From Promethearchaeota archaeon Loki_b31 (GTDB taxonomy: Archaea > Asgardarchaeota > Lokiarchaeia > Sigyniarchaeales > SOKP01), in NCBI GenBank assembly GCA_005222975.1, contig NJBI01000087.1, positions 1-10,522 on the forward strand: a stretch of 10,522 nucleotides of DNA. Reading direction: 5' to 3'. This document shows, one piece after another, positions 1-10,522 of this stretch. Positions within the stretch are counted from its first letter, which is position 1, and every line of letters begins with the position of its first letter. A program made the position numbers and the translations under genes. Under the pieces are notes generated by a model. That model was not told where the DNA came from, ran no database searches, and saw only the letters and a program-made list of their open reading frames with translations.

Positions 1-500
1 TTTTTATTTAAATCTTCCATCTTTTGTTCTGAATATGTTGTTTTTAGTTGATTTTCCCGGTTTTCGTTATCGATCTTTTTCTGGTCTAACTGTGACTTTT
101 CTAACTCTTTTGAAGCAATTTTTTCGTTTATGGTATTTAACTTCGATAATAGGTTTTCAAGCTCAACTTTAGGTGTCTTGAGATCGCCATTGATTCTCTC
201 TAAAGTACCTTTTAATTCCAAAACTTTTGATAATGATTCATCCTTTGTAGATTTTAAGCTTTCAATTTTTTTATTTAAATCATCTGATTTAATTTTTAAT
301 CCAGTTAATTCATTCTTTTGAATTTCAATATTTTTTTCTATTTTTTGGAGATCATCATGCTCTAATTTCATCAACTTCCATGTTGTGCTTAAATTTTGAA
401 TAATATTATCGCTATTTTTTTTAAAGGCTTGCTGATATTCGTCAAAATATTTTTCAAGTTGTTCAATTGATCCTAAAATATCTTTTAAACTTGAACTCAT
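1..500 (-). CDS. Long coiled-coil protein, 3'-truncated by window edge (at least 166 aa); not in supplied ORF track
   Basis: ATG at 500..498 overlaps the upstream stop (TAATG). Frame is open to base 1: MSSSLKDILGSIEQLEKYFDEYQQAFKKNSDNIIQNLSTTWKLMKLEHDDLQKIEKNIEIQKNELTGLKIKSDDLNKKIESLK...EQKMEDLNK. K/E/L-rich heptad pattern; strong SD upstream. Confidence 0.9.
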   Translation of the reverse strand, partial: MSSSLKDILGSIEQLEKYFDEYQQAFKKNSDNIIQNLSTTWKLMKLEHDDLQKIEKNIEIQKNELTGLKIKSDDLNKKIESLKSTKDESLSKVLELKGTLERINGDLKTPKVELENLLSKLNTINEKIASKELEKSQLDQKKIDNENRENQLKTTYSEQKMEDLNK

Positions 501-1255
501 TAGAAATCAACCTCCTCTTTTAGGGTAATCGTTCCATTTGTTGGATTATATTCGATTGGTGCATTATCTTCAAGCATTTTTACTATAATTTTTTTGGCTT
601 GGTCTTCTCTCATATCAATTGCAAGTAATATATTTTTTAAATCTAAAGCACTTCCTAATTGTAAGGCTTTGATAAACTGAAATAAAGAAGAGCTCATGTA
701 TTTCTTATTAATTAAAATTTTCATGGCAGCTACTCTATTTTCATACGATTGAACGAATTTTTCCTTCTTTATAAAAGTATTTTCAAGCTCAGCTTCTAGT
801 GCTTTTAATTTTGCTTCAAATTTTTCAATGTCTTTATGTAAAGTAAACAATCTATCCTCAAGTTCTTTTAGACGTTCATCCCGACTGGTTAATTCTTCTT
901 TTTTCAATTTAATGGTCTCATGTGTCTCCTTTAACTCATTTTGTTTTTCCTGAATTTTTTGTAATAATTCTTGGCGCTTTTTAGTTAATTCAGCGTTATC
1001 TTCTTCATATTTTACTATATCTCGTTGACTTTGAGAAATCTCATTCTTGAAGGAATTAATTTCTTCGTTATTTGATTGGATAGTTTTCATTAAGTTGTTC
1101 TTTTCATCTTCATATTTTTCTAACTCTTCAAGAATGCTTTCGGGTTGCGTTCTTAATTTTGGTATGTAATCGCTATTCAATCCGCTAATATCTACAATGA
1201 TCGAAGTCATTTTCTTTAAAGATGTTTTAGCATCTAATATTGGTACCTCACTCAT
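500..1255 (-). CDS. Coiled-coil protein with putative C-terminal winged-helix domain (251 aa)
   Basis: About 140 aa of E/K/Q/L heptads, then SSLFQFIKAL-LDLKNILLAIDMREDQAKKIIVKML-PIEYNPTNGTITL (three helices plus beta hairpin pattern). AGGAG SD at 1268..1264. No Walker A motif or SMC hinge seen. Confidence 0.8.
   Translation of the reverse strand: MSEVPILDAKTSLKKMTSIIVDISGLNSDYIPKLRTQPESILEELEKYEDEKNNLMKTIQSNNEEINSFKNEISQSQRDIVKYEEDNAELTKKRQELLQKIQEKQNELKETHETIKLKKEELTSRDERLKELEDRLFTLHKDIEKFEAKLKALEAELENTFIKKEKFVQSYENRVAAMKILINKKYMSSSLFQFIKALQLGSALDLKNILLAIDMREDQAKKIIVKMLEDNAPIEYNPTNGTITLKEEVDF
507..517 (-). promoter_or_regulatory. Shine-Dalgarno site (GAGGAGGTTGA) for the ORF starting at 500
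   Basis: GGAGG at 515..511, 10 nt before the ATG at 500, embedded in the last codons (EEVDF) of the upstream gene. Confidence 0.7.
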
Positions 1256-1326
1256 ACTAAATTCTCCTATATATTTTTAACTAAAATTATAATTTATTTA
1301 TAGAGTATACATTATTAAATTTGTAT

Positions 1327-1353
1327 TTTTCAATACTTTCTATACTTTCTATA
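1327..1353. repeat. Short 9-bp tandem repeat (TTTTCAATA CTTTCTATA CTTTCTATA)
   Basis: Two exact copies and one degenerate copy in the spacer between the kinase stop and the coiled-coil start. Confidence 0.55.
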
Positions 1354-1370
1354 AAAATTAAATTGAAAAA

Positions 1371-2207
1371 TTACATTTCTTTTGAGATATTCTTTATGAA
1401 GTTTTCCTTGTCGAGATTTAAATTGATATGTCTTCTTCTCATTACAATATTTAGATTCTCAATAAGTTTCTCTGTGAAGTATTTGAAATTAAAATGAAAT
1501 GTAGGGTTTTTCCAGTAATAACTTTTTAAAAAGTGGTTTAATAGATCAATTTTTGATTTAGGATTATCCATTTCAAAAATTCCGGGATTCGTATCAAGTA
1601 AAGAACAACAAACCCATGCGATGTCGTCAATGTGATTTCCTTCGTAAGATTCTTCGAAATCCATACCATACAATTTGTTATTTGAAGGATTATATACGAA
1701 ATCTCTAAGACGAGTGTCGCCTTTATTTAGAACTATAATTTCTGAAAGCTCGTTCTTCCCAATCATATTATTTGTATGTAATTGAGTAAACCAATCTGCT
1801 AATTTCTCAACACATATAATAACCTCTTTTTTAACATCAGCGTCTAAATCGTTTAAATCAGAAACATCAACTAACTTGTCGTTAATGTAATCGCATAAAT
1901 TAACCCCTTCCGCTTTTTCAAGGAATAGATAAGGTTTTTTATAAAATATTATATCGGGGATTAATAACTTTTGTTTCTTCAATCGTTTTAAAGTATTATA
2001 TTCGTTATCGGCATTTTTAGTTCTAAATATTTTAACTATCATTTCTTTAGGTAGTCTTTCCGTTTCTTTGTTAAAAGTTAAGCTGATAACTGTATTTTGC
2101 TTACTATGTAACGGAGATATAACAAAATGATTAAATTTGTCAACCAATTCAGGGAAGTCTTCTCTAAGATCGGTAATGATATCCTTTCTAATTTTAAAAA
2201 GCTCCAT
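1371..2207 (-). CDS. Atypical protein-kinase-like fold protein (RIO/Bud32/APH phosphotransferase superfamily)
   Basis: MIVKIF (beta3 Lys), NEYNTLKRL (alphaC Glu), LFLEKAEG hinge, KGDTRLRDF (variant HGDxxxxN loop), GMDFE (DFG-equivalent), DDIAW helix. Confidence 0.8.
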   Translation of the reverse strand: MELFKIRKDIITDLREDFPELVDKFNHFVISPLHSKQNTVISLTFNKETERLPKEMIVKIFRTKNADNEYNTLKRLKKQKLLIPDIIFYKKPYLFLEKAEGVNLCDYINDKLVDVSDLNDLDADVKKEVIICVEKLADWFTQLHTNNMIGKNELSEIIVLNKGDTRLRDFVYNPSNNKLYGMDFEESYEGNHIDDIAWVCCSLLDTNPGIFEMDNPKSKIDLLNHFLKSYYWKNPTFHFNFKYFTEKLIENLNIVMRRRHINLNLDKENFIKNISKEM

Positions 2208-2439
2208 CTTGATAAAACGAAAATAAAACGGTGATTAATATATTCTGATTTATGGAACGCTGTAATTAAATATTAATTATCAAATATTTATATTAAATTT
2301 CTGTATTAATTTTTTGAAACTTTATTAAAACATTATTATTAGAATAATAAGTGAAGATGTTCAAGGCAAATATTATATGATTTATGAAATATCATAATAA
2401 TAAATTAAAGTCTAGATTAAATTTATTCCTTGATGAGAT

Positions 2440-3318
2440 ATGGAAAAACAATATAAAATTGGGATTTTTTACGGACCGGATCCAGATACAGAGATGTTAG
2501 CCCAAAAATTTATTGGTAACCTTATCAACGACGACGAATTTTGTAAAGCGTGTGAATTGCTTGAACAAAAAGTTAAATGCGATCATTGTAGAGAACATTT
2601 AAGAAACTTCTCAAGTTCGGTTTATTTTTACGATAAATTAGGAGAAAATATCCCAGATTTTATTGAAAACCCTGAAGATTTTTTGCCAAAAACTATACCC
2701 CCAGTAGATTTTTTGATGGTAGTTGGAATTCACCAAGACTTACTTTCAGAATTGCCAGAGTATTTGAAAGATAAAAAAATTAAAGCGGTAATTATCCCTA
2801 TTGAGAACCCTAAATGGGTGCCCCCAGGATTACAAGTACAGGTCTTAGAAGATTTTGAAAGATTGGGAATTCAAGCAGCGTTTCCAAAACCTTTTTGTGC
2901 AATGAGTAAAGAACTGAACGAATACAACAAAGTAGGGTTTAATCTCACTAAAAAACACGATAATATTATTGAATTTATTGATTATTATAAAATAGGAGAA
3001 CCCATTGTTTCATTCATTTTGAGCGACGATGGAAAATCAATTTTGGATACATGCGTTTTACAAAGCGCGCCATGCGGCTCTACATTCTACATCCTCCAAC
3101 AATTGAAAGCTAAATATATTAATGACGATGAATTAAGCTTAAACGAAAGAATTAGTAAAGCTCATCATTCTTATCCCTGCAATGCTTCAATGGATAAAGA
3201 TTTAATATTAAAAGATTCAATACTCCATATAGGTGGAATTCTCGTAAGAAACGCGGTTAGAAACGAATTGGGACTTAAAGAACATGAAGGTCGTAAAATG
3301 GCATATGTCGCCCCTTAA
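2440..3318 (+). CDS. DUF166 family protein (archaeal, function unknown) with N-terminal four-Cys cluster
   Basis: Family-type motifs HQDL, PKPFC, SAPCGST, HHSYPCNASM, SILHIGG; N-terminal FCKAC...KCDHCR. Confidence 0.8.
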   Translation: MEKQYKIGIFYGPDPDTEMLAQKFIGNLINDDEFCKACELLEQKVKCDHCREHLRNFSSSVYFYDKLGENIPDFIENPEDFLPKTIPPVDFLMVVGIHQDLLSELPEYLKDKKIKAVIIPIENPKWVPPGLQVQVLEDFERLGIQAAFPKPFCAMSKELNEYNKVGFNLTKKHDNIIEFIDYYKIGEPIVSFILSDDGKSILDTCVLQSAPCGSTFYILQQLKAKYINDDELSLNERISKAHHSYPCNASMDKDLILKDSILHIGGILVRNAVRNELGLKEHEGRKMAYVAP

Positions 3319-3556
3319 TTTTAACTATTTTTAAAACATAACTCACGCTTCATAATAATATTTAATATAACAATTTATATTTTATAAAAAGAAAAAGAAC
3401 TTGAGTTTTGACTCATAAAATTAGAAGCTAAAATTAAATCTGTTAATCTTTTAATAGTTTAACAACTAAAACTAATGTAATCATATTTTTAACGGAAGTT
3501 AGGTCCTTTTTATTATATAATATGAACCTTTTTAGACGTAATTAAATTCATAAATC

Positions 3557-5716
3557 ATGGTGAGTCATATAACTCAATGTACAAAGACACTGTGTCTCGA
3601 CGAAGGTTTTGAAGTAGAAAAAGAATCTTTTTTTGAAAAAAGATTTTGGTATTTCATAATTCCATCATTGATCTTGCTTGGATTATCTATCACCTTAGAA
3701 CTTCTAACTGACTCTGTTTTATTAAGTCAGGTTTTGGCTGTTGCTTCAATTCTACTCTCAGGTTATGGAATATTAAAAGAGGCTATAGAAGATGTCTTAT
3801 CTAAAAAGATTACAGCCAATATCCTAATGATAGTCGCGGGTATTGCTTCTTTTTTTATATTGCACGGTCAGGAAGGAGCTATGGCGATTTTACTTTATGC
3901 AATAGCTGAATATTTAGAGGAATTAACTACAGAAAAATCTAAAAATGCGATCAAAGAATTACTTGAATTAGCTCCAGATGACGCTCTATTAAAGATTAAA
4001 GATAGCTACGAGAAAGTACCGACTGAAACTGTAAAGATCGGTGAAGTAATCGGTATTAAACCAGGAATGAAAGCCCCTCTGGATGGAATAATCGTAAAAG
4101 GGAAATCTTATTTCGATGAAAGTGCAATAACAGGCGAGTCTTTACCTATTTTCAAAGAAGAAAACGATGAAATCTTTGCCGCGAGTATTAACAACGATAG
4201 TTTTGTGGATATAAAAGTAATAAGAGAGAGTTCAAACACAGTTGTGGCTAAAATAGCCGAAAGTATTAAATTAGCTCAACAAAACAAAAGCGATAGCGAA
4301 CGATTTATTGAAAAGTTTGCTAAATATTATACGCCAATTATATTGATTAGCGCGCTCTTTGTTATGATTATACCCACGGTCTTATTTAACCTAGATTTTA
4401 ACGTGTGGTTTTACCGAGGTTTAATTTTATTAGTAGTTTCTTGTCCTTGTGCTCTCACATTGTCAACTCCTTTAGCTAATATAGCTGCACTCACAAAATT
4501 GGCAAAGGAAGGAATACTGGTTAAAGGAAACAAATTTATTGAAATAGCGAAAAATATCGAGTTAATCGCGTTTGATAAGACCGGAACTCTTACAGAAGGA
4601 AATTTAAAAGTTTTTAATATTATTAATCATTCCAGCAATAAACAAGAGATTCTTAAAATAGCTGCTAGCTTAGAAAATCTTTCAGAACACCCAATTGGAA
4701 AAGCTATCGTTTATCAAGCGAATCAAATGCAATTACTGTTATATGCTGTGGAAGATTTTAAAATTACTAAAGGGAAAGGTATTAGAGGAGTAATTCAAGG
4801 GGAAGTATATTATATAGGAAGCAAGAATTACCTTGAAGAACTAAAATTTGACCTTCCTGATGATATCTTTGAAGAAACCGAATTATCTGGAACTATTCCT
4901 ATATTACTCGGAAACAATAAAACAATTATGGGAATAATTACAATCAGAGATGTGTTAAGAGTTTCAGCACCTCTCCTAGTCGACGGTTTGAAAAAACGAG
5001 GTTATAAGTCAGTTCTTATCTCGGGAGATAATCAGTTAGTATGTAATACAATAGGGGAGTGCTTAGATATAGATTCCTACTATGGAGAATTGTTACCCGA
5101 CCAAAAATTAGAGGAAATTGAAAGTTTTAAAAAGAAATTTAAAGGAGTAGCTATGGTTGGTGACGGAATAAACGATGCTCCTGCTTTAGCATTATCAGAT
5201 TTAGGAATTGCAATCGGTGCTTCGGCAACGGATTTAACTTTAGAAACAGCAGATGTTATTATTATGAGCGACGATTTAAAGAAAATTATAACTTTCTTTG
5301 ATATTTCAAAAAAGACTAATAAAATCATAAGACAAAACATATGGACTTCGATAATTGTCAAAGTTACTTTCGCGATTCTCACAGTCTTAGGCTTTATGAC
5401 ACTGTGGCTTGCGGTGGGTATAGCAGATATGGGCGTGTCATTACTTGTTTTAATCAATGGAATGACTATTTTCAGATATAAAATAAAGTTTAAAGAACTC
5501 TCTTTAGAGTACTTAGAAAGCAACGCAAAATTAATTATTTGTCAAATTTGCGAAACTAAAAATATTATACCTCAACACCATGGTCGAGATATGATCGAGA
5601 AAGAGGGAAAATTAATTTGTTGGAGAAAATTACTGAGTAACGAAGATTTAGAACCATGTCAAGAGGAATTACCTTTATTTTGCCCTAAATGTAATAATGA
5701 GCTACATGTAATTTAA
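3557..5716 (+). CDS. zntA: Heavy-metal-translocating P1B-type ATPase, P1B-2 (Zn/Cd/Pb; ZntA/CadA-like)
   Basis: TGES, SCPCAL, DKTGT, SEHP, SGD, MVGDGINDAPAL; TM Lys (IVKVTF) and Asp (IADMG) typical of P1B-2. No N-terminal HMA domain. Confidence 0.93.
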   Translation: MVSHITQCTKTLCLDEGFEVEKESFFEKRFWYFIIPSLILLGLSITLELLTDSVLLSQVLAVASILLSGYGILKEAIEDVLSKKITANILMIVAGIASFFILHGQEGAMAILLYAIAEYLEELTTEKSKNAIKELLELAPDDALLKIKDSYEKVPTETVKIGEVIGIKPGMKAPLDGIIVKGKSYFDESAITGESLPIFKEENDEIFAASINNDSFVDIKVIRESSNTVVAKIAESIKLAQQNKSDSERFIEKFAKYYTPIILISALFVMIIPTVLFNLDFNVWFYRGLILLVVSCPCALTLSTPLANIAALTKLAKEGILVKGNKFIEIAKNIELIAFDKTGTLTEGNLKVFNIINHSSNKQEILKIAASLENLSEHPIGKAIVYQANQMQLLLYAVEDFKITKGKGIRGVIQGEVYYIGSKNYLEELKFDLPDDIFEETELSGTIPILLGNNKTIMGIITIRDVLRVSAPLLVDGLKKRGYKSVLISGDNQLVCNTIGECLDIDSYYGELLPDQKLEEIESFKKKFKGVAMVGDGINDAPALALSDLGIAIGASATDLTLETADVIIMSDDLKKIITFFDISKKTNKIIRQNIWTSIIVKVTFAILTVLGFMTLWLAVGIADMGVSLLVLINGMTIFRYKIKFKELSLEYLESNAKLIICQICETKNIIPQHHGRDMIEKEGKLICWRKLLSNEDLEPCQEELPLFCPKCNNELHVI

Positions 5717-5722
5717 ATCTGC

Positions 5723-5738
5723 GATTTTTTAAAAAATC
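5723..5738. terminator. Probable bidirectional oligo-T terminator
   Basis: Perfect 16-bp palindrome GATTTTTTAAAAAATC gives a T6 run on each strand in the 37-bp gap between convergent genes. Confidence 0.5.
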
Positions 5739-5753
5739 TTCTTTCTTTCTCAT

Positions 5754-6314
5754 TTAAAAGAATAAAAAATATCTCGGTATTTTATTTTTATATTCTTCAT
5801 AAGATTCGCCATATTGTTCTAAAAGCTTTCTTTCCTCACATAGAATGCGAAAATGACCACCAATTATAGAAAAACCAAGGATTATTAATTCAATCCCTGA
5901 TCCAATAGTTAAACAAATCCCTAAAAATACGATATAGATAGTCAACATCTGAGGATTTCGAGATATTCGATATAACCCCGAGGTTATTGGCTTATCTAAA
6001 GGCGCATTTTTAAAACTTAGGAGTGCCATTGCCATCCCTATTGTACCAATAGCAAATATTATTATCCCAATTAAAAATTCAATTGATCCAATCTTTAATG
6101 GAGTAAGTATAAACAAAATATAAAAAAATAATACTGCAATCAATCCAGTTATTTTAAGGAAAATTCCTCTTTTTTTCCATTCTTCTTCCTCGTAAAGCCT
6201 TGCGATGACTTCTTTAGGACATGTCAATACTATTACACCAAAAATTCCGAAAAATATAACAAGTAATAACCAACCATTTAACCAACCAAACTCTAATATA
6301 GGAAAAAATTCCAT
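5754..6314 (-). CDS. Isoprenylcysteine carboxyl methyltransferase / phospholipid methyltransferase family membrane protein
   Basis: Multiple TM helices; ITSGLYRISRNPQ and EERKLLEQYGESYEEYKNKIPRY signature motifs. Confidence 0.88.
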   Translation of the reverse strand: MEFFPILEFGWLNGWLLLVIFFGIFGVIVLTCPKEVIARLYEEEEWKKRGIFLKITGLIAVLFFYILFILTPLKIGSIEFLIGIIIFAIGTIGMAMALLSFKNAPLDKPITSGLYRISRNPQMLTIYIVFLGICLTIGSGIELIILGFSIIGGHFRILCEERKLLEQYGESYEEYKNKIPRYFLFF

Positions 6315-6484
6315 TTAAAGCACCCTTAAAATTGTTTTACGTTCATTTCTATTCCAAATATTATAAGGCAAATATCATATTTAAATCTAGCTATACCTAA
6401 TTTAATTAAAAAAAGAATTGAATTCAAACGATATTTTTTGGTTTTCATTAAAACCTAAATTTAAATATAAGCTTTTACAAATTA

Positions 6485-6770
6485 AAATTAGAAAAACATT
6501 ATCTTAAGTGCAATTAGAATTGTAATTAATTATCAGAAATAGTTTCAATTCATATTCTTCCTAAAATCTTCTAGTGAATAGTCTTCAAAACCTATGTCAA
6601 ATCAAATAATCGAGATTAAAGGACTTGACCGTTTATATAAACTAAAATATCTTTGGTTGGAAAATAACTCTTTTTCAAACCCAAGTAATAATCTGATATA
6701 CAATGTAAAAAAGGAACCTAATGATATCTTTTATCGTCTAAACCTAAAGATTCTTTCCCAATTATTTTAA
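6485..6770 (+). pseudogene. Degraded leucine-rich-repeat (SDS22-type) gene remnant
   Basis: 58-aa ORF 6594..6770 begins MSNQIIEIKGLDRLYKLKYLWLENN, matching NxIxxIxxLxxLxxLxxLxLxxN. A different frame from 6485 reads KLEKHYLKCN*NCN*LSEIVSIHILPK, which looks like a broken preceding repeat. Confidence 0.6.
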
Positions 6771-6787
6771 AAGTAAGAATGTTTAAA

Positions 6788-6872
6788 TGCGGGAAGGGAG
6801 ATTCGAACTCCCGAACCCCTACGGGACTGGATTCTGAGTCCAGCGCCTTTGACCAAGCTTGGCAATTCCCGC
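6788..6872 (-). tRNA. trnL: tRNA-Leu, anticodon CAG, intronless, CCA not encoded
   Basis: GCGGGAA/TTCCCGC acceptor stem plus discriminator A; D arm GCCAAGCTTGGTCAAAGGC; anticodon arm CTGGA-CTCAGAA-TCCAG (anticodon 6836..6834); variable arm CCCGTAGGG; T arm GGGAG-TTCGAAT-CTCCC. Confidence 0.97.
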
Positions 6873-7069
6873 AATGAATTTAATTTCGAAAGTTTTTATT
6901 ACCAATAAAATTAGAGACTGAGGAATATAATTACACGAAATTTTTATATCTTGTGAACTTTGCAGTTTTTAAAGTCCAGTTTTTAAAATACTAAAATTAA
7001 GAAATACCTAATATTAAAATAAATTAAAATCTTATACATCGATAACTAATCGAAAGGGGAATTTAAATA

Positions 7070-7864
7070 ATGCCAAAGGTTAAAATTAATAATTTTAATT
7101 TGCACTACGAAGTTTACGGCGAGGGTCATCCTCTATTAATGATTTTAGGTTTGGGGGCAAATACTAGCTGGTGGGGGAGATATTTTCTTAAAGAATTAGC
7201 AAAACATTTTAAAGTTATTGTGTTCGATAATAGAGGAACAGGACAATCTGACGATCCCAAACTGGATTACACAATAAAAACATTAGCAGACGACACAATT
7301 GGTTTAATGGATGCTTTAAACGTTGAATATGCTCATCTTTTCGGACACTCAATGGGAGGTGGTATTGCTCAAGAGTTGGTTCTAAACTTTAAAAGGATAA
7401 ATAAGTTAATTTTATGTTCCACAAGTTGTGGTGGACCTAAATCTATTTTAGCATCTCCAGAAGTATTACAAATCGTAGGTAAGCCAAGAGAGGGTCGAAC
7501 TATAGAAGAAATAGCAGAAGAAACTTTGACAATATTCTATTCAAACGAATTCATAAAAAAAAACCCTAAGCTTATTGGATATGCGATTCAAAACATGGGA
7601 AAAACGCCAATGTCGCCCGAAAATTACGAACATCAAACAAAGGCAATTGAATCGTTCAATACATGCGATAAATTAAAAGAATTAAAGATATCTACCTTAA
7701 TCATGCATGGAAAGAAGGACATTTTAGTTCCACCTCAAAACGCCGAAATCCTCGCTGAATTAATAGCAAATTCCCAAATCACATGGTTTAATAAAAGCGC
7801 ACATGCTCCTTTTGTCGAAGAACCAAATTTGGTCTTAAATGCTATAATCGAATTTCTGAAATAA
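7070..7864 (+). CDS. Alpha/beta-fold hydrolase
   Basis: FDNRGTGQSD, nucleophile elbow GHSMGG, HGKKD acid, SAH catalytic His. Confidence 0.93.
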   Translation: MPKVKINNFNLHYEVYGEGHPLLMILGLGANTSWWGRYFLKELAKHFKVIVFDNRGTGQSDDPKLDYTIKTLADDTIGLMDALNVEYAHLFGHSMGGGIAQELVLNFKRINKLILCSTSCGGPKSILASPEVLQIVGKPREGRTIEEIAEETLTIFYSNEFIKKNPKLIGYAIQNMGKTPMSPENYEHQTKAIESFNTCDKLKELKISTLIMHGKKDILVPPQNAEILAELIANSQITWFNKSAHAPFVEEPNLVLNAIIEFLK

Positions 7865-7953
7865 ATTCTACATCTATTTTTAAAGCAAAAATAATAATAT
7901 ATTATTAATCCTAATTAGTTATTAAGTAATGAAAGCAATTTAAATTAAATAAA

Positions 7954-8700
7954 ATGCCAGATGAGCAACCCCCAGCTAGGAATAACACGAAAGAAGAAGA
8001 AGATGTTCCTGAAAGAAAAGTTCAAGATATTATTGTTTATCAATTTAACGATGAGATTGGTGATTTTGAAGAATTAATAATTGATCCTGATCTACGATTA
8101 CAAGATTTGTTAGATGATGATTTCGTTCTTCTTTTTACAGATCCTCAACATTACAGAGTCTGGTTGTGGCACGGCTATAACACTACTACAAGAATGAAAT
8201 TCATCGCTGCAAAGATGGCTCCAGCTATAAGGGACAAACACGGGATTGCCTTTAAAATTACTGCTGTTGACCAAGATGACGAAGCACATGGTTTTAAAGT
8301 AATGCTAGGGTTAGAGAAAGAGATCGATTATGAACTTACTCAAACTGGACCGGCTTATGAAGGTACAGCTGAAGATCTTGAGCTTCTTGAGTCTTTATCG
8401 AGAGAAAAAATACTCCTAATACTTGAAAAAGCGGGAATTCCTGAAGGATTTGAACGAAAAATTGTTATTGTAAAAAATAATATCTTTGGGTATCGCGAAT
8501 ATGAACGAAATTATCTAGGTTCTGTAATCAAAGAAAAGCAGTTATTCCCTTTAAAAGAAGAAATCGAAGATGGAACCTATTTAGCTGATAAATATATCCC
8601 CAGAATGCTTTTTTCGTTTAATAAAGTGGTATTAATTGAACTATTGCAAAAGGTAGAAGTGGAAGTAGAAGTAGAAGGCGAGGATATCATAAACAAATAG
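7954..8700 (+). CDS. Gelsolin-like domain protein: one gelsolin-type domain plus uncharacterised C-terminal domain
   Basis: Residues ~24-120: LLDDDFVLLFTD...RVWLWHG.NTTTRMKFIAAKMA...ITAVDQDDEAHGFKVMLG fits the gelsolin repeat consensus (LxxxDxFxLD, IxxWxG, long helix, VxQGxExxxF). Confidence 0.75.
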   Translation: MPDEQPPARNNTKEEEDVPERKVQDIIVYQFNDEIGDFEELIIDPDLRLQDLLDDDFVLLFTDPQHYRVWLWHGYNTTTRMKFIAAKMAPAIRDKHGIAFKITAVDQDDEAHGFKVMLGLEKEIDYELTQTGPAYEGTAEDLELLESLSREKILLILEKAGIPEGFERKIVIVKNNIFGYREYERNYLGSVIKEKQLFPLKEEIEDGTYLADKYIPRMLFSFNKVVLIELLQKVEVEVEVEGEDIINK

Positions 8701-8845
8701 CTACTTAAAGAAAATAATGAATAAAATGAGTTCATTAAAATCAAAACAGTACCAAAAAAGCTAAATCCCTTAATGTTTCTAAACGATCAACTATTTAATG
8801 AACTTCTTTTTATTTTACATAATAAAATCATGAAGTATTAATTAA

Positions 8846-9565
8846 ATGAAGTTAAAACGAATAGATTACGTCTTTGTATTTCTTTTAATAGTGCTTACGA
8901 TTATTTCAATTGATTTCCTATTAAATGAAGCTCATAGAGAAGCTATAGAAAACTTTTCCAAATATCCCCCCTTTCAAAATTTAGCATCTGGGCTTCTAAT
9001 AACCTTTCTTGTTTGTTTAATAGGAAACTTATTACCTATTCCTACACCATATACATTTGTAGTTTGCTTTAGCTCGCTTCCATTTTTACAATTAAATTTG
9101 ATCATCCCTATGATTGTCGCTTTAGTAGCAAGTTTAGGTTGTTTATTTGGCGAGTTGGTGGGTTATTTTGTTGGTAGAGGCGTTTCAGAGTTCATTTCTG
9201 AAGAACAGAGAAAAAAATTAAAGAATTATCAACAGTTCTTAGTAGAACATCCAAAAATTGCTCCTTTTGCTATATTTTTTGCCGCTTTAACGCCCATATC
9301 GGATGATCTTATTACAATTCCCCTTGGATTAATAAAATATTCTTTGAAAAAGACAATATTTTGGTGTTGGCTTGGGAAATTAGGCTTGATGTTAATTTTC
9401 TCTTATAACTTCTTAAAGATTTGCAGTTTATTGGGAGGAGAAAGTTGGATTCTAAGCGTAGTCTCATTATATGTTATGGTAATCTTCTTATATGCTATGT
9501 TGAAAATAAATTTACTAGACTTAGTTAAAAAATATATAAAAAGAAAATCAAATAAAAAGTTATGA
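8846..9565 (+). CDS. DedA / VTT (SNARE-associated) family membrane protein
   Basis: Hydrophobic protein with LLPIPTPY, GELVGYFVGRG and AALTPISDDLITIPLGL motifs. Confidence 0.85.
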   Translation: MKLKRIDYVFVFLLIVLTIISIDFLLNEAHREAIENFSKYPPFQNLASGLLITFLVCLIGNLLPIPTPYTFVVCFSSLPFLQLNLIIPMIVALVASLGCLFGELVGYFVGRGVSEFISEEQRKKLKNYQQFLVEHPKIAPFAIFFAALTPISDDLITIPLGLIKYSLKKTIFWCWLGKLGLMLIFSYNFLKICSLLGGESWILSVVSLYVMVIFLYAMLKINLLDLVKKYIKRKSNKKL

Positions 9566-9574
9566 ATTTTTAAT

Positions 9575-10084
9575 TTACCTTTCCTTAATTAAGATATCCG
9601 TACCTGGTAAAGAAACGCTCCCCGATGTCATCCCTTCGGCTTTCATATAATCATCGATCGTTCTTTCTTCTACTTTTTTAATATATTCTTGTAGTTCAGA
9701 ATGGATGTCTTGAGAAAGTTCAGGAGGTTTATAATCCCGCAATATTTCCTCGAATTTTTCGTGAGCTGACTCCATAATGTCTTTTGAACCCTTCTTTCGC
9801 CAAGTACTTCTTCTATTCCTATTAATAAGTTTATGAATTGGCATATATAATTCTTGCTTCAAATGTTTACGCGTGTGTTTTTCAGCCAAGAAAGTAGAAC
9901 CGGGCTTTTCATTCAATGCTATTTTCTTAATAGTTTCTAACCCTATTGTATCTTCATTTACAATAATACCCTCAGTTGCTCTTTTTACCATGCCAGCTAA
10001 CTCGTCATCAATTACAAGAAGCTCCAAAGCTTCGACTAAAGTTGCTTCGTAGGTTCCCGCGCACGTAATGTAATTTATTCCCAT
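9575..10084 (-). pseudogene. mttB: 3' portion (~169 aa) of an MttB-superfamily (trimethylamine/quaternary amine:corrinoid) methyltransferase; 5' two-thirds absent
   Basis: GINYITCAGTYEATLVEALELLVIDDELAGMVKR..EGIIVNEDTIG..FLAEKHT..ELYMP..W..KG..A..ILRDYKPPEL follows the MttB C-terminal consensus; similarity stops abruptly upstream of MGIN. Confidence 0.8.
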
Positions 10085-10204
10085 TTCTATGAATTTCTTT
10101 TGTTTATCGGTTAAATCGTTTACGTCGCACTTAGAACAAACGCTATAATGCTTAGGATTATCGTTTTGAACGATTATTTTCCCACATAAGATACATTCTA
10201 ACAT
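10085..10204 (-). CDS. 40-aa zinc-ribbon segment (CxxC-x15-CxxC) reading in frame into the mttB remnant (chimeric ORF 9575..10204, 209 aa)
   Basis: MLECILCGKIIVQNDNPKHYSVCSKCDVNDLTDKQKKFIE; ATG at 10204 preceded by purine-rich AAGGGGA (10220..10214). Confidence 0.6.
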
Positions 10205-10253
10205 TTTCTCAAATCCCCTTATCAAAATCTTTAATTTTTTTTTATCATGCTCA

Positions 10254-10522
10254 TTAAATAGCTTCGTAGTATTTTTTAATTCTCCCACCTTTGTTTAGGA
10301 TAACTCTTATTTTTCCTTGTCTTTCGAGATTTCGGACAGTCTTTGATATGTTCGTAGAGTGTTCGTAATCCATAGCTAACGCCCATTTCTTTAAGGACGC
10401 TTTTCCTATTTCTCTTAATTTATCCAAACAAATTTTTTCCCAAGTTCTAAAAACTTCATTTTCTTTACACTTCGTTTTTTTTATCGTTGTTAGATAACTC
10501 CTTCGTTTTTTTGTCGTTCTTT
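10254..10522 (-). CDS. Small winged helix-turn-helix DNA-binding protein, start outside window or unresolved; not in supplied ORF track
   Basis: Frame open from 10520 to TAA at 10256..10254: ...FRTWEKICLDKLREIGKASLKKWALAMDYEHSTNISKTVRNLERQGKIRVILNKGGRIKKYYEAI*; helix-helix-turn-helix plus wing pattern. Confidence 0.7.
   Translation of the reverse strand, partial: RTTKKRRSYLTTIKKTKCKENEVFRTWEKICLDKLREIGKASLKKWALAMDYEHSTNISKTVRNLERQGKIRVILNKGGRIKKYYEAI

Follow-up and report, generated by a model that had tools for sequence, protein, structure and literature searches.

A coupled gene pair of Asgard archaea predicted to encode a parallel coiled-coil heterodimer with a double winged-helix head

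What kind of structure is made by two adjacent genes of Asgard archaea, each of which encodes a long coiled coil followed by a small winged-helix (wH) domain? The question is raised by a stretch of DNA of 10,522 nucleotides (the window) from Promethearchaeota archaeon Loki_b31 (assembly GCA_005222975.1, contig NJBI01000087.1, positions 1 to 10,522), which begins with two open reading frames (ORFs) on the reverse strand, ORF1 and ORF2. Asgard archaea are the closest known relatives of eukaryotes, and we know of no role for most of their lineage-specific conserved proteins. A first-pass annotation, made from the DNA letters alone, had described the two ORFs as a translationally coupled pair of coiled-coil proteins, the first ending in a winged helix, and had proposed that they form a heterodimeric rod or filament. 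ORF1 and ORF2 prove to be genuine genes, a pair that is conserved among Asgard archaea and has no name. The prediction that their products form a parallel, in-register heterodimer, with the heads side by side, is well supported by sequence evidence, the register agreeing in three deep lineages; that this rod presents its double wH head to a protein partner, i.e., that it is a tether or adaptor, is on balance probable.

ORF1 (positions 500 to 1255, reverse strand) encodes 251 amino acids, arranged as an N-terminal helix, a long coiled-coil helix, a neck, a winged helix and an acidic C-terminal tail. ORF2 (positions 3 to 500, reverse strand) comprises the initial 166 of about 245 amino acids and is open at the edge of the window. 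The assembly (3.5 Mb) consists of 99 contigs and the window starts at base 1 of its contig (C81), so ORF2 has been truncated by the assembly; the remaining 79 codons were sought across the other contigs of the same assembly and were not found. The TAA of ORF1 (500-502) and the ATG of ORF2 (498-500) have one base in common, giving TAATG on the coding strand (positions 498 to 502, reverse strand), and a Shine-Dalgarno-like GGAGG lies inside the end of ORF1 (positions 511 to 515, reverse strand), 10 nucleotides upstream of the ORF2 start. The bases of the coupling are as first described. A GGAG (positions 1264 to 1267, reverse strand) lies 8 nucleotides upstream of the ORF1 start, within a spacer of 115 nucleotides that is AT-rich and has TATA-like runs, from which it can be said that the pair probably has its own promoter; a promoter and terminator scan with bacterial-type models, which are ill-suited to an archaeon, gave no enrichment. 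The G+C of the region is about 0.24-0.35. The suggestion that the operon might continue leftwards did not hold, as in relatives ORF2 ends at 245 amino acids and the next gene varies between genera.

There are 189 homologues of ORF1 and, among the 120 matches listed, nearly all are 250-252 amino acids long and 67-96% identical. Because so many homologues have a near-constant length, ORF1 and ORF2 are not chance ORFs. Where named, the homologues come from Asgard metagenome-assembled genomes (Lokiarchaeota, Promethearchaeota and others), and the named members of more distant clusters are labelled Hodarchaeales, Heimdallarchaeota or “Asgard group”, in agreement with the Asgard-like archaeon surmised from the letters. 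Identity within one genus is 56-96%, and the two proteins keep lengths of about 250 and 245 amino acids. Gene order was examined in 19 + 7 + 18 complete loci, covering 12 genera of two Lokiarchaeia-type families (f1 and f2) and, in addition, families f16, f9 and f19. In the 19 loci of the window's genus and of a second family, the ORF1 orthologue is followed immediately by an ORF2 orthologue of 245 (or 242) amino acids, with an overlap of one base in 17 loci and of four bases in one, the genes being directly adjacent in the last. In f16, f9 and f19 and in ten further genera of the window's family, the ORF1-type gene is always directly upstream of the ORF2-type gene, and the two overlap, abut or are separated by no more than about 30 nucleotides. 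Taken over all the loci, most overlaps measure 1 or 4 nucleotides. Thus, the two genes are adjacent and in the same order in every complete locus examined, and the co-conservation on which the idea of partnership depended is borne out.

When 400 genomes sampled from the phylum were searched with an ORF2 profile, 148 had a match; these comprise 104 of the 134 genomes from the window's family, 5 of the 14 from its sister family and, in seven additional families, genomes with weaker matches that are full-length (241-255 amino acids). Among the matches of a profile to 1.84 billion representative proteins, the family-like ones were 241-254 amino acids long (289 for a paralog), the rest being giant coiled-coil proteins or short fragments; those matches checked for names were Asgard or had no name. 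One ORF2 variant (P0172) has 488 amino acids, but its sole addition is an acidic disordered extension, which offers no functional clue. For the pair, nothing but coiled-coil matches below threshold came from Pfam, NCBIfam, PADLOC and PHROGs, a profile search of PDB sequences likewise gave coiled-coil matches alone, and literature searches found no paper on the gene pair. As had been expected, these searches assign the proteins to no characterised family. In the Pfam scan of the window proteins, ORF2 was represented by its fragment of 166 amino acids, and the best 25 matches at E ≤ 0.1 were listed.

By profile comparison, ORF1 and ORF2 are distant paralogs: the alignment of the two families is collinear over 221 columns (hhalign, E-value 2.5e-5, probability 75%). 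Family alignments bear out the heptad-rich character of both proteins, with an unbroken single register at residues 34-157 of ORF1 and 26-138 of ORF2. AlphaFold2 monomer models were obtained for ORF1 and for a full-length ORF2 orthologue (L003:764-1498:-), with a mean pLDDT of 84 each. In the ORF1 model, a long helix (32-169) is followed by a neck helix (171-183) and a winged helix (190-245); in the ORF2 model, the long helix (3-157) is followed by two neck helices (159-174 and 176-184) and a winged helix (190-243), and there is no separate short N-terminal helix. Both predicted heads have the order H1-S1-H2-H3-S2-S3, which is the topology of a winged helix. Translated into window positions, all on the reverse strand, the N-terminal helix of ORF1 (residues 4-24; positions 1184 to 1246) has a different heptad phase and is at the cap end of the rod, with K10 and T11 invariant; the long helix (residues 32-183; positions 707 to 1162) consists of the unbroken heptads and then the neck (158-183); the winged helix (residues 187-245; positions 521 to 697) is acidic, with an isoelectric point (pI) of 4.65; and the disordered, acidic-aromatic C-terminal tail EEVDF (residues 247-251; positions 503 to 517) is the best-conserved stretch of ORF1 (mean column identity 0.92 over residues 246-251).

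Compared with solved winged helices, the ORF1 head (187-251) has Foldseek probabilities of 0.97-1.0 but E-values of about 0.06-0.1, and VIA Z scores of 6.8-7.6, with a root-mean-square deviation (rmsd) of 2.1-2.8 Å over 60-68 residues. The ORF2 head (188-245) matches more closely (Z 9-10.3, rmsd 1.4-2.0 Å, 57-58 residues), and its structural matches include SelB, ArsR, IclR, MarR, Z-alpha, Rpa2, the MCM C-terminus, Hop2 (2mh2, Z 9.3) and cullin. Thus, the C-terminal winged helix that had been predicted for ORF1 is recovered in its model, and full-length relatives of ORF2 (245 amino acids) end in one too. Full-length ORF2 also has an invariant stretch in its head, P-I-M-A-V-R-T-I-K-Q-L-A, and an invariant, disordered hinge, F-F-T-S-F.

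The analysis of heptads and charges, which addresses how the two chains would pair, is the new element of this work. Charge contacts between g and e′ positions were scored in every parallel register in which the two hydrophobic cores stay in phase, and the offset delta = 1 denotes residue r of ORF1 opposite residue r-1 of ORF2. At delta = 1, the g-e′ contacts of 14 species pairs are attractive in 121 cases vs repulsive in 15; every other parallel heterodimer register has a net of at most +1 per pair, and the in-register homodimers have 60 attractive and 72 repulsive contacts (ORF1) or 76 and 78 (ORF2). When single sequence pairs were scanned, each with its own register assignment and 10-13 possible registers, delta 0-2 was best in all 12 f1/f2 pairs and in both f9 pairs. 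For the three f16 pairs, offset 0 was best in one, 0 and 7 were the top two in the second, and offset 5 was obtained in the third, in which one protein has six extra N-terminal residues. When the e and g residues of ORF2 were shuffled 300 times, the score observed at that register was equalled in 0-16 shuffles for f1/f2, 1-2 for f9 and 1-26 for f16.

The predicted core is consistent with this register. In the delta = 1 heterodimer, 10 core a/d layers have a charged residue opposite a hydrophobic residue and none has charge opposite charge, the charged core residues being K52, R94, K104, K118 and R125 in ORF1 and E47, K131, K135, K142 and E149 in ORF2; in the in-register homodimers, five like-charged core layers of each protein would be stacked on themselves. 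N62 of ORF1 would be opposite the invariant Q61 of ORF2, forming a polar layer, and, of the 14 pairs, 13-14 retain each of the predicted salt bridges R128-E132, K127-E133 and K78-E84. Some genomes of two genera carry a longer paralog pair (284 + 289 amino acids), each helix of which is extended by an insert of about 33 residues towards the head end; matching inserts in both chains are what in-register pairing would require. Conservation of columns decreases from the a and d positions (0.72-0.76) to e and g (0.63-0.65) to b, c and f (0.53-0.55), and the best-conserved parts, i.e., the neck, the heads, the EEVDF tail of ORF1 and the N-terminal caps, are all above the rod. With conservation concentrated at its ends, the rod has the look of a spacer, and the functional sites would seem to be the ends themselves.

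The surfaces of the heads bear on what they might bind. Both heads are acidic (pI 4.2-4.9 in f1/f2), as are the whole proteins (pI about 5). Helix 3 of ORF1, which corresponds to the recognition helix, starts M-R-E-D, with Glu-Asp at its opening; helix 3 of ORF2 opens with the invariant, exposed and hydrophobic P-I-M, and the tip of its wing is D-E-D, rich in Asp and Glu. Given the acidity of the heads and the Glu-Asp in the ORF1 recognition helix, protein binding looks likelier than classical DNA binding as the function of the double head.

The mechanism that we favour, and hold to be somewhat more probable than not, can be outlined as follows. ORF1 and ORF2 would be made 1:1 from one coupled two-gene unit, and their chains would zip into a parallel, in-register, two-stranded coiled coil with residue r of ORF1 opposite residue r-1 of ORF2, giving a rod of about 20-25 nm that would be mainly a spacer. 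At one end, the two winged helices would lie side by side, behind the conserved neck; at the other end, the two N-termini would contribute to a small conserved cap; and these conserved ends would be the working parts. The double head would take hold of a protein, in the way that wH modules do in ESCRT-II, cullins, PCI subunits and CdvB, and the complex would be a tether or adaptor of fixed length. By analogy, the pair would then belong to the stalk-and-head heterodimers. Spc24-Spc25 and similar kinetochore heterodimers also have two small paralogs, a parallel coiled-coil stalk and a paired protein-binding head; however, their head is an RWD fold rather than a winged helix, and no homology was detected.

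Several points weigh against this mechanism. The heterodimer is something that we infer from sequence patterns; it is on these that the rod of the first-pass annotation, now favoured by charge, core and register together, still rests. Because species within a family are kin, the agreement in 12 of 12 pairs is worth about three independent lineages only. The f19 pairs and the long paralog pair give an ambiguous register scan, and in individual species a small number of antiparallel settings come close in score (e.g. 9:1 in L021). The pair is not universal: nothing beyond coiled-coil noise was seen in a single-contig genome of 4.4 Mb from the same order, or in one from the window's own genus with an estimated completeness of 100%. 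No conserved neighbour or fusion names a partner in the lineages examined. Lastly, the recognition helix of ORF2 (A-V-R-T-I-K-Q-L) resembles those of DNA binders of the Lrp/TrmB/MarR type, and relatives have weak MarR or TrmB matches, for which reasons DNA binding stays a live rival.

This rival, which we consider unlikely but the most serious, is that the pair acts on DNA or the chromosome, either in the manner of Hop2-Mnd1 or as a paired winged helix-turn-helix regulator, with the juxtaposed winged helices binding DNA and the rod acting as a spacer or bridge to another factor. The fold of the heads is canonical and common to many DNA binders, including the Hop2 winged helix mentioned above; helix 3 of ORF2 keeps R222, T223 and K225 in an Lrp/TrmB-like pattern (V-R-x-I-K-x-L-x-x-x-G-I-I); and IMG names fragments of relatives as MarR or IclR regulators. 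Yet the matches to the Lrp/TrmB/MarR families are below the family thresholds, the acidity of heads and whole proteins and the sequences M-R-E-D and D-E-D count against DNA binding, and the ORF2 domain is located behind about 180 residues of coiled coil and paired with a second, different winged helix. Hop2-Mnd1 is, by analogy, the closest design: it too has two paralogs of about 200-250 amino acids, each with a single winged helix and a long helix, which pair in parallel with the winged helices side by side, an arrangement that for the Asgard proteins is a prediction. The Hop2-Mnd1 rod is built of three zippers with kinks, whereas the Asgard rod is one nearly unbroken run of heptads; the winged helix is N-terminal in Hop2-Mnd1 and C-terminal in both Asgard proteins; and the Asgard heads are acidic. 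No sequence or Pfam relation between the two systems was found (Mnd1, TBPIP/Hop2 and LZ3wCH were absent from the Pfam matches listed), nor any link to RadA/Dmc1 genes. Genes for recombination, replication or segregation are not among the conserved neighbours in related loci, and the sole ParB fusion found is an assembly chimera.

More doubtful is the possibility that the pair is an accessory of Asgard trafficking or ESCRT-like machinery, with heads that dock on ESCRT-type or longin/GTPase partners; this would be a special case of the protein tether. Archaeal ESCRT-like loci contain coiled-coil + wH proteins, arCOG09748 and arCOG11741 (Makarova et al. 2024, PMC10936438), and in these, as in CdvB, the winged helix used for protein docking is at the C-terminus, behind a body that is helical or a coiled coil (PMC10936438). 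In two genera, the longer paralog pair lies between two small genes of longin-like type (Fuz_longin_1, E-values 1.6e-6 and 0.065), and in genus g21 a longin gene (E-value 2e-9) is 3.5 kb from the main pair. However, longin genes are common in Asgard genomes, so this proximity may be chance. Compared by published description, arCOG09748 and arCOG11741 are single genes beside ESCRT-III/Vps4, whereas the Asgard genes are an obligate paralog pair located elsewhere. The Asgard models have one long helix rather than the hairpin of ESCRT-III/CdvB, and ESCRT-II (Vps22/Vps25/Vps36) has tandem winged helices rather than a single one per protein. There is no Snf7 (PF03357), EAP30 or Vps25 match among the Pfam matches of the window proteins; Vps4/CdvC or CdvA was not seen near the pair, in the window or in related loci; and no Vps4, ESCRT-III, Vps22/25/28 or GTPase gene adjoins the main pair in any lineage examined.

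It is improbable that ORF1 and ORF2 do not pair with each other at all, forming instead homodimers or higher bundles, or antiparallel rods with a head at each end, e.g. as units of an intermediate-filament-like polymer. Paralogs would share heptad breaks whether or not they are paired, some antiparallel settings score well in single species, and both ends of the rod are conserved, as end-to-end assembly would need. Against this, the g-e′ balance of the homodimers is neutral to negative and each would bury its five like-charged core layers, the best antiparallel setting differs from species to species whereas the parallel register is constant, and strict 1:1 coupling and gene order are kept across the phylum. 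As for SMC/Rad50-type chromosome segregation ATPases, the label “chromosome segregation ATPase” that IMG gives to many homologues (the very mislabelling that had been foreseen) and the sub-threshold coiled-coil matches to SMC, Rad50, ASRP, JetC and LmuB models reflect a heptad-rich helix only, and the idea is refuted by the absence of an NTPase domain, since the scores are far below the cut-offs (TIGR02168, 34.3 bits vs 567; TIGR02169, 31.2 vs 729; ASRP, 32.9 vs 300), neither protein has a Walker A motif (no G-x4-G-K-[ST] and no P-loop family match above threshold, as first noted), an ATPase head or a hinge, and proteins of 251 and 245 amino acids are a quarter of the length.

The genes around the pair were compared in related loci, and no neighbour conserved across lineages was found. 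Upstream of ORF1 and co-oriented with the pair is a gene for an atypical, Kdo/APH-like kinase of 278 amino acids (positions 1371 to 2207, reverse strand), which is a possible regulator. Within the window's family, this arrangement, with a kinase-like gene ahead of the pair, recurs in 5 of the 10 other genera examined, and it also holds for the window's own genus. The window copy has a Kdo-like E-value of 0.035, and the orthologue from genus g22 has E-values of 2.7e-5 (Kdo) and 6.2e-5 (APH); the protein has K-G-D-x4-D instead of H-x-D-x4-N, and a M-D-F-E motif. Perhaps the kinase controls the complex, e.g. at the F-F-T-S-F hinge of ORF2; control by the kinase, like the protein ligand, is what we infer. 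A DUF166 gene (positions 2440 to 3318 of the window, forward strand, E-value 8e-45) is often located beyond the kinase gene.

In family f16 (L052:8202-12457, with the same layout in L053, L059, L077 and L078), the pair is divergent to a conserved run of four genes, encoding an Hsp20-like protein and a Cdc48-like AAA ATPase (both recognised by eye), a PAC2-family protein (E-value 4e-11) and an HTH_20 protein (E-value 9.5e-8). As all five genomes come from one genus (g49), this linkage is so far uninformative. The longer paralog pair (283-284 + 288-289 amino acids) is situated in a conserved cluster (L057:3214-8767, with the same layout in L072, L073 and L074), in the order small transmembrane protein, longin-like protein, ORC/Cdc6-like ATPase (PF24389, E-value 8e-12), pair, longin (Fuz_longin_1, E-value 1.6e-6) and coiled-coil proteins of 160 amino acids; in L057, a SIR2-TPR gene is upstream. 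The longin-like flanks are a weak hint of trafficking or GTPase-related partners. The genome of the window also has a third, unpaired coiled-coil + wH gene (L081:1240-1953:+, genome G000, contig C72), encoding 237 amino acids with a basic C-terminal tail and a head resembling that of ORF2 (A-M-V-L-R-A-V-H-E-L ... Y-D-E-D-T), which suggests that there is a wider Asgard superfamily of coiled-coil + wH proteins.

Two candidate clues were rejected. Matches of the long helix to kinetochore CCAN and Ndc80-Nuf2 (Z 8.3-8.5, rmsd >8 Å) were dismissed as a common arrangement. A fusion of a ParB N-terminal domain (PF02195, E-value 1.2e-34) to an ORF2 tail in genome G028 (L070:4989-5618:-) was considered as a clue to partition and found to be an assembly chimera. 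It is a unique protein, the first 55% of which is 84-91% identical to Clostridia ParB, with the end of a Soj-like gene upstream, and the last 49% of which is 100% identical to a normal ORF2 orthologue of 242 amino acids on another contig. In this public genome (contig C226, L070:4989-5829), a Clostridia-type soj/parB end has been joined to an Asgard ORF2 tail at a short A-rich microhomology.

Elsewhere in the window, the gene at positions 7954 to 8700 (forward strand) encodes 248 amino acids without a Pfam match; its nearest Atlas cluster (score 0.99) has 329 members from Promethearchaeota and was automatically named gelsolin-like, and its best PDB sequence match is a gelsolin-like domain protein (7c2f_B, E-value 0.078). 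Its product is probably an Asgard actin regulator of the gelsolin/cofilin type. Positions 3557 to 5716 (forward strand) encode a P-type ATPase (E1-E2_ATPase, E-value 2e-44; Hydrolase, E-value 6e-27) with a Cys-rich, zinc-ribbon-like C-terminal extension of about 70 amino acids. Positions 9575 to 10288 (reverse strand) encode 237 amino acids, with a Cys-rich, zinc-ribbon-like N-terminus and only the C-terminal third of the MttB methyltransferase model (363-496 of 500, E-value 3.5e-25); the start of this ORF is overlapped by an ORF in another frame (positions 10254 to 10520, reverse strand), which runs off the end of the window.

What the gene pair means for Asgard biology depends on the ligand of the double head. 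In the furthest-reaching proposal, to which we give only a slim chance, the complex would be an Asgard-specific tether of defined length, in which the double wH head and the N-terminal cap link two structures (e.g. the membrane or cytoskeleton on one side and chromatin or a large protein machine on the other) under the control of the neighbouring atypical kinase. If the tether reading is true, the complex would be a prokaryotic forerunner, in design rather than in sequence, of stalk-and-head adaptors such as Hop2-Mnd1 and Spc24-Spc25. If the function turns out to be ordinary (e.g. that of a regulator), the gain would be a corrected annotation in hundreds of genomes, as the public description of the pair as SMC-like ATPases is wrong. 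As a complex of only two proteins, with its register predicted and its salt bridges named, the pair is simple to put to the test, and identifying what its double head holds could reveal a piece of Asgard cell organisation.

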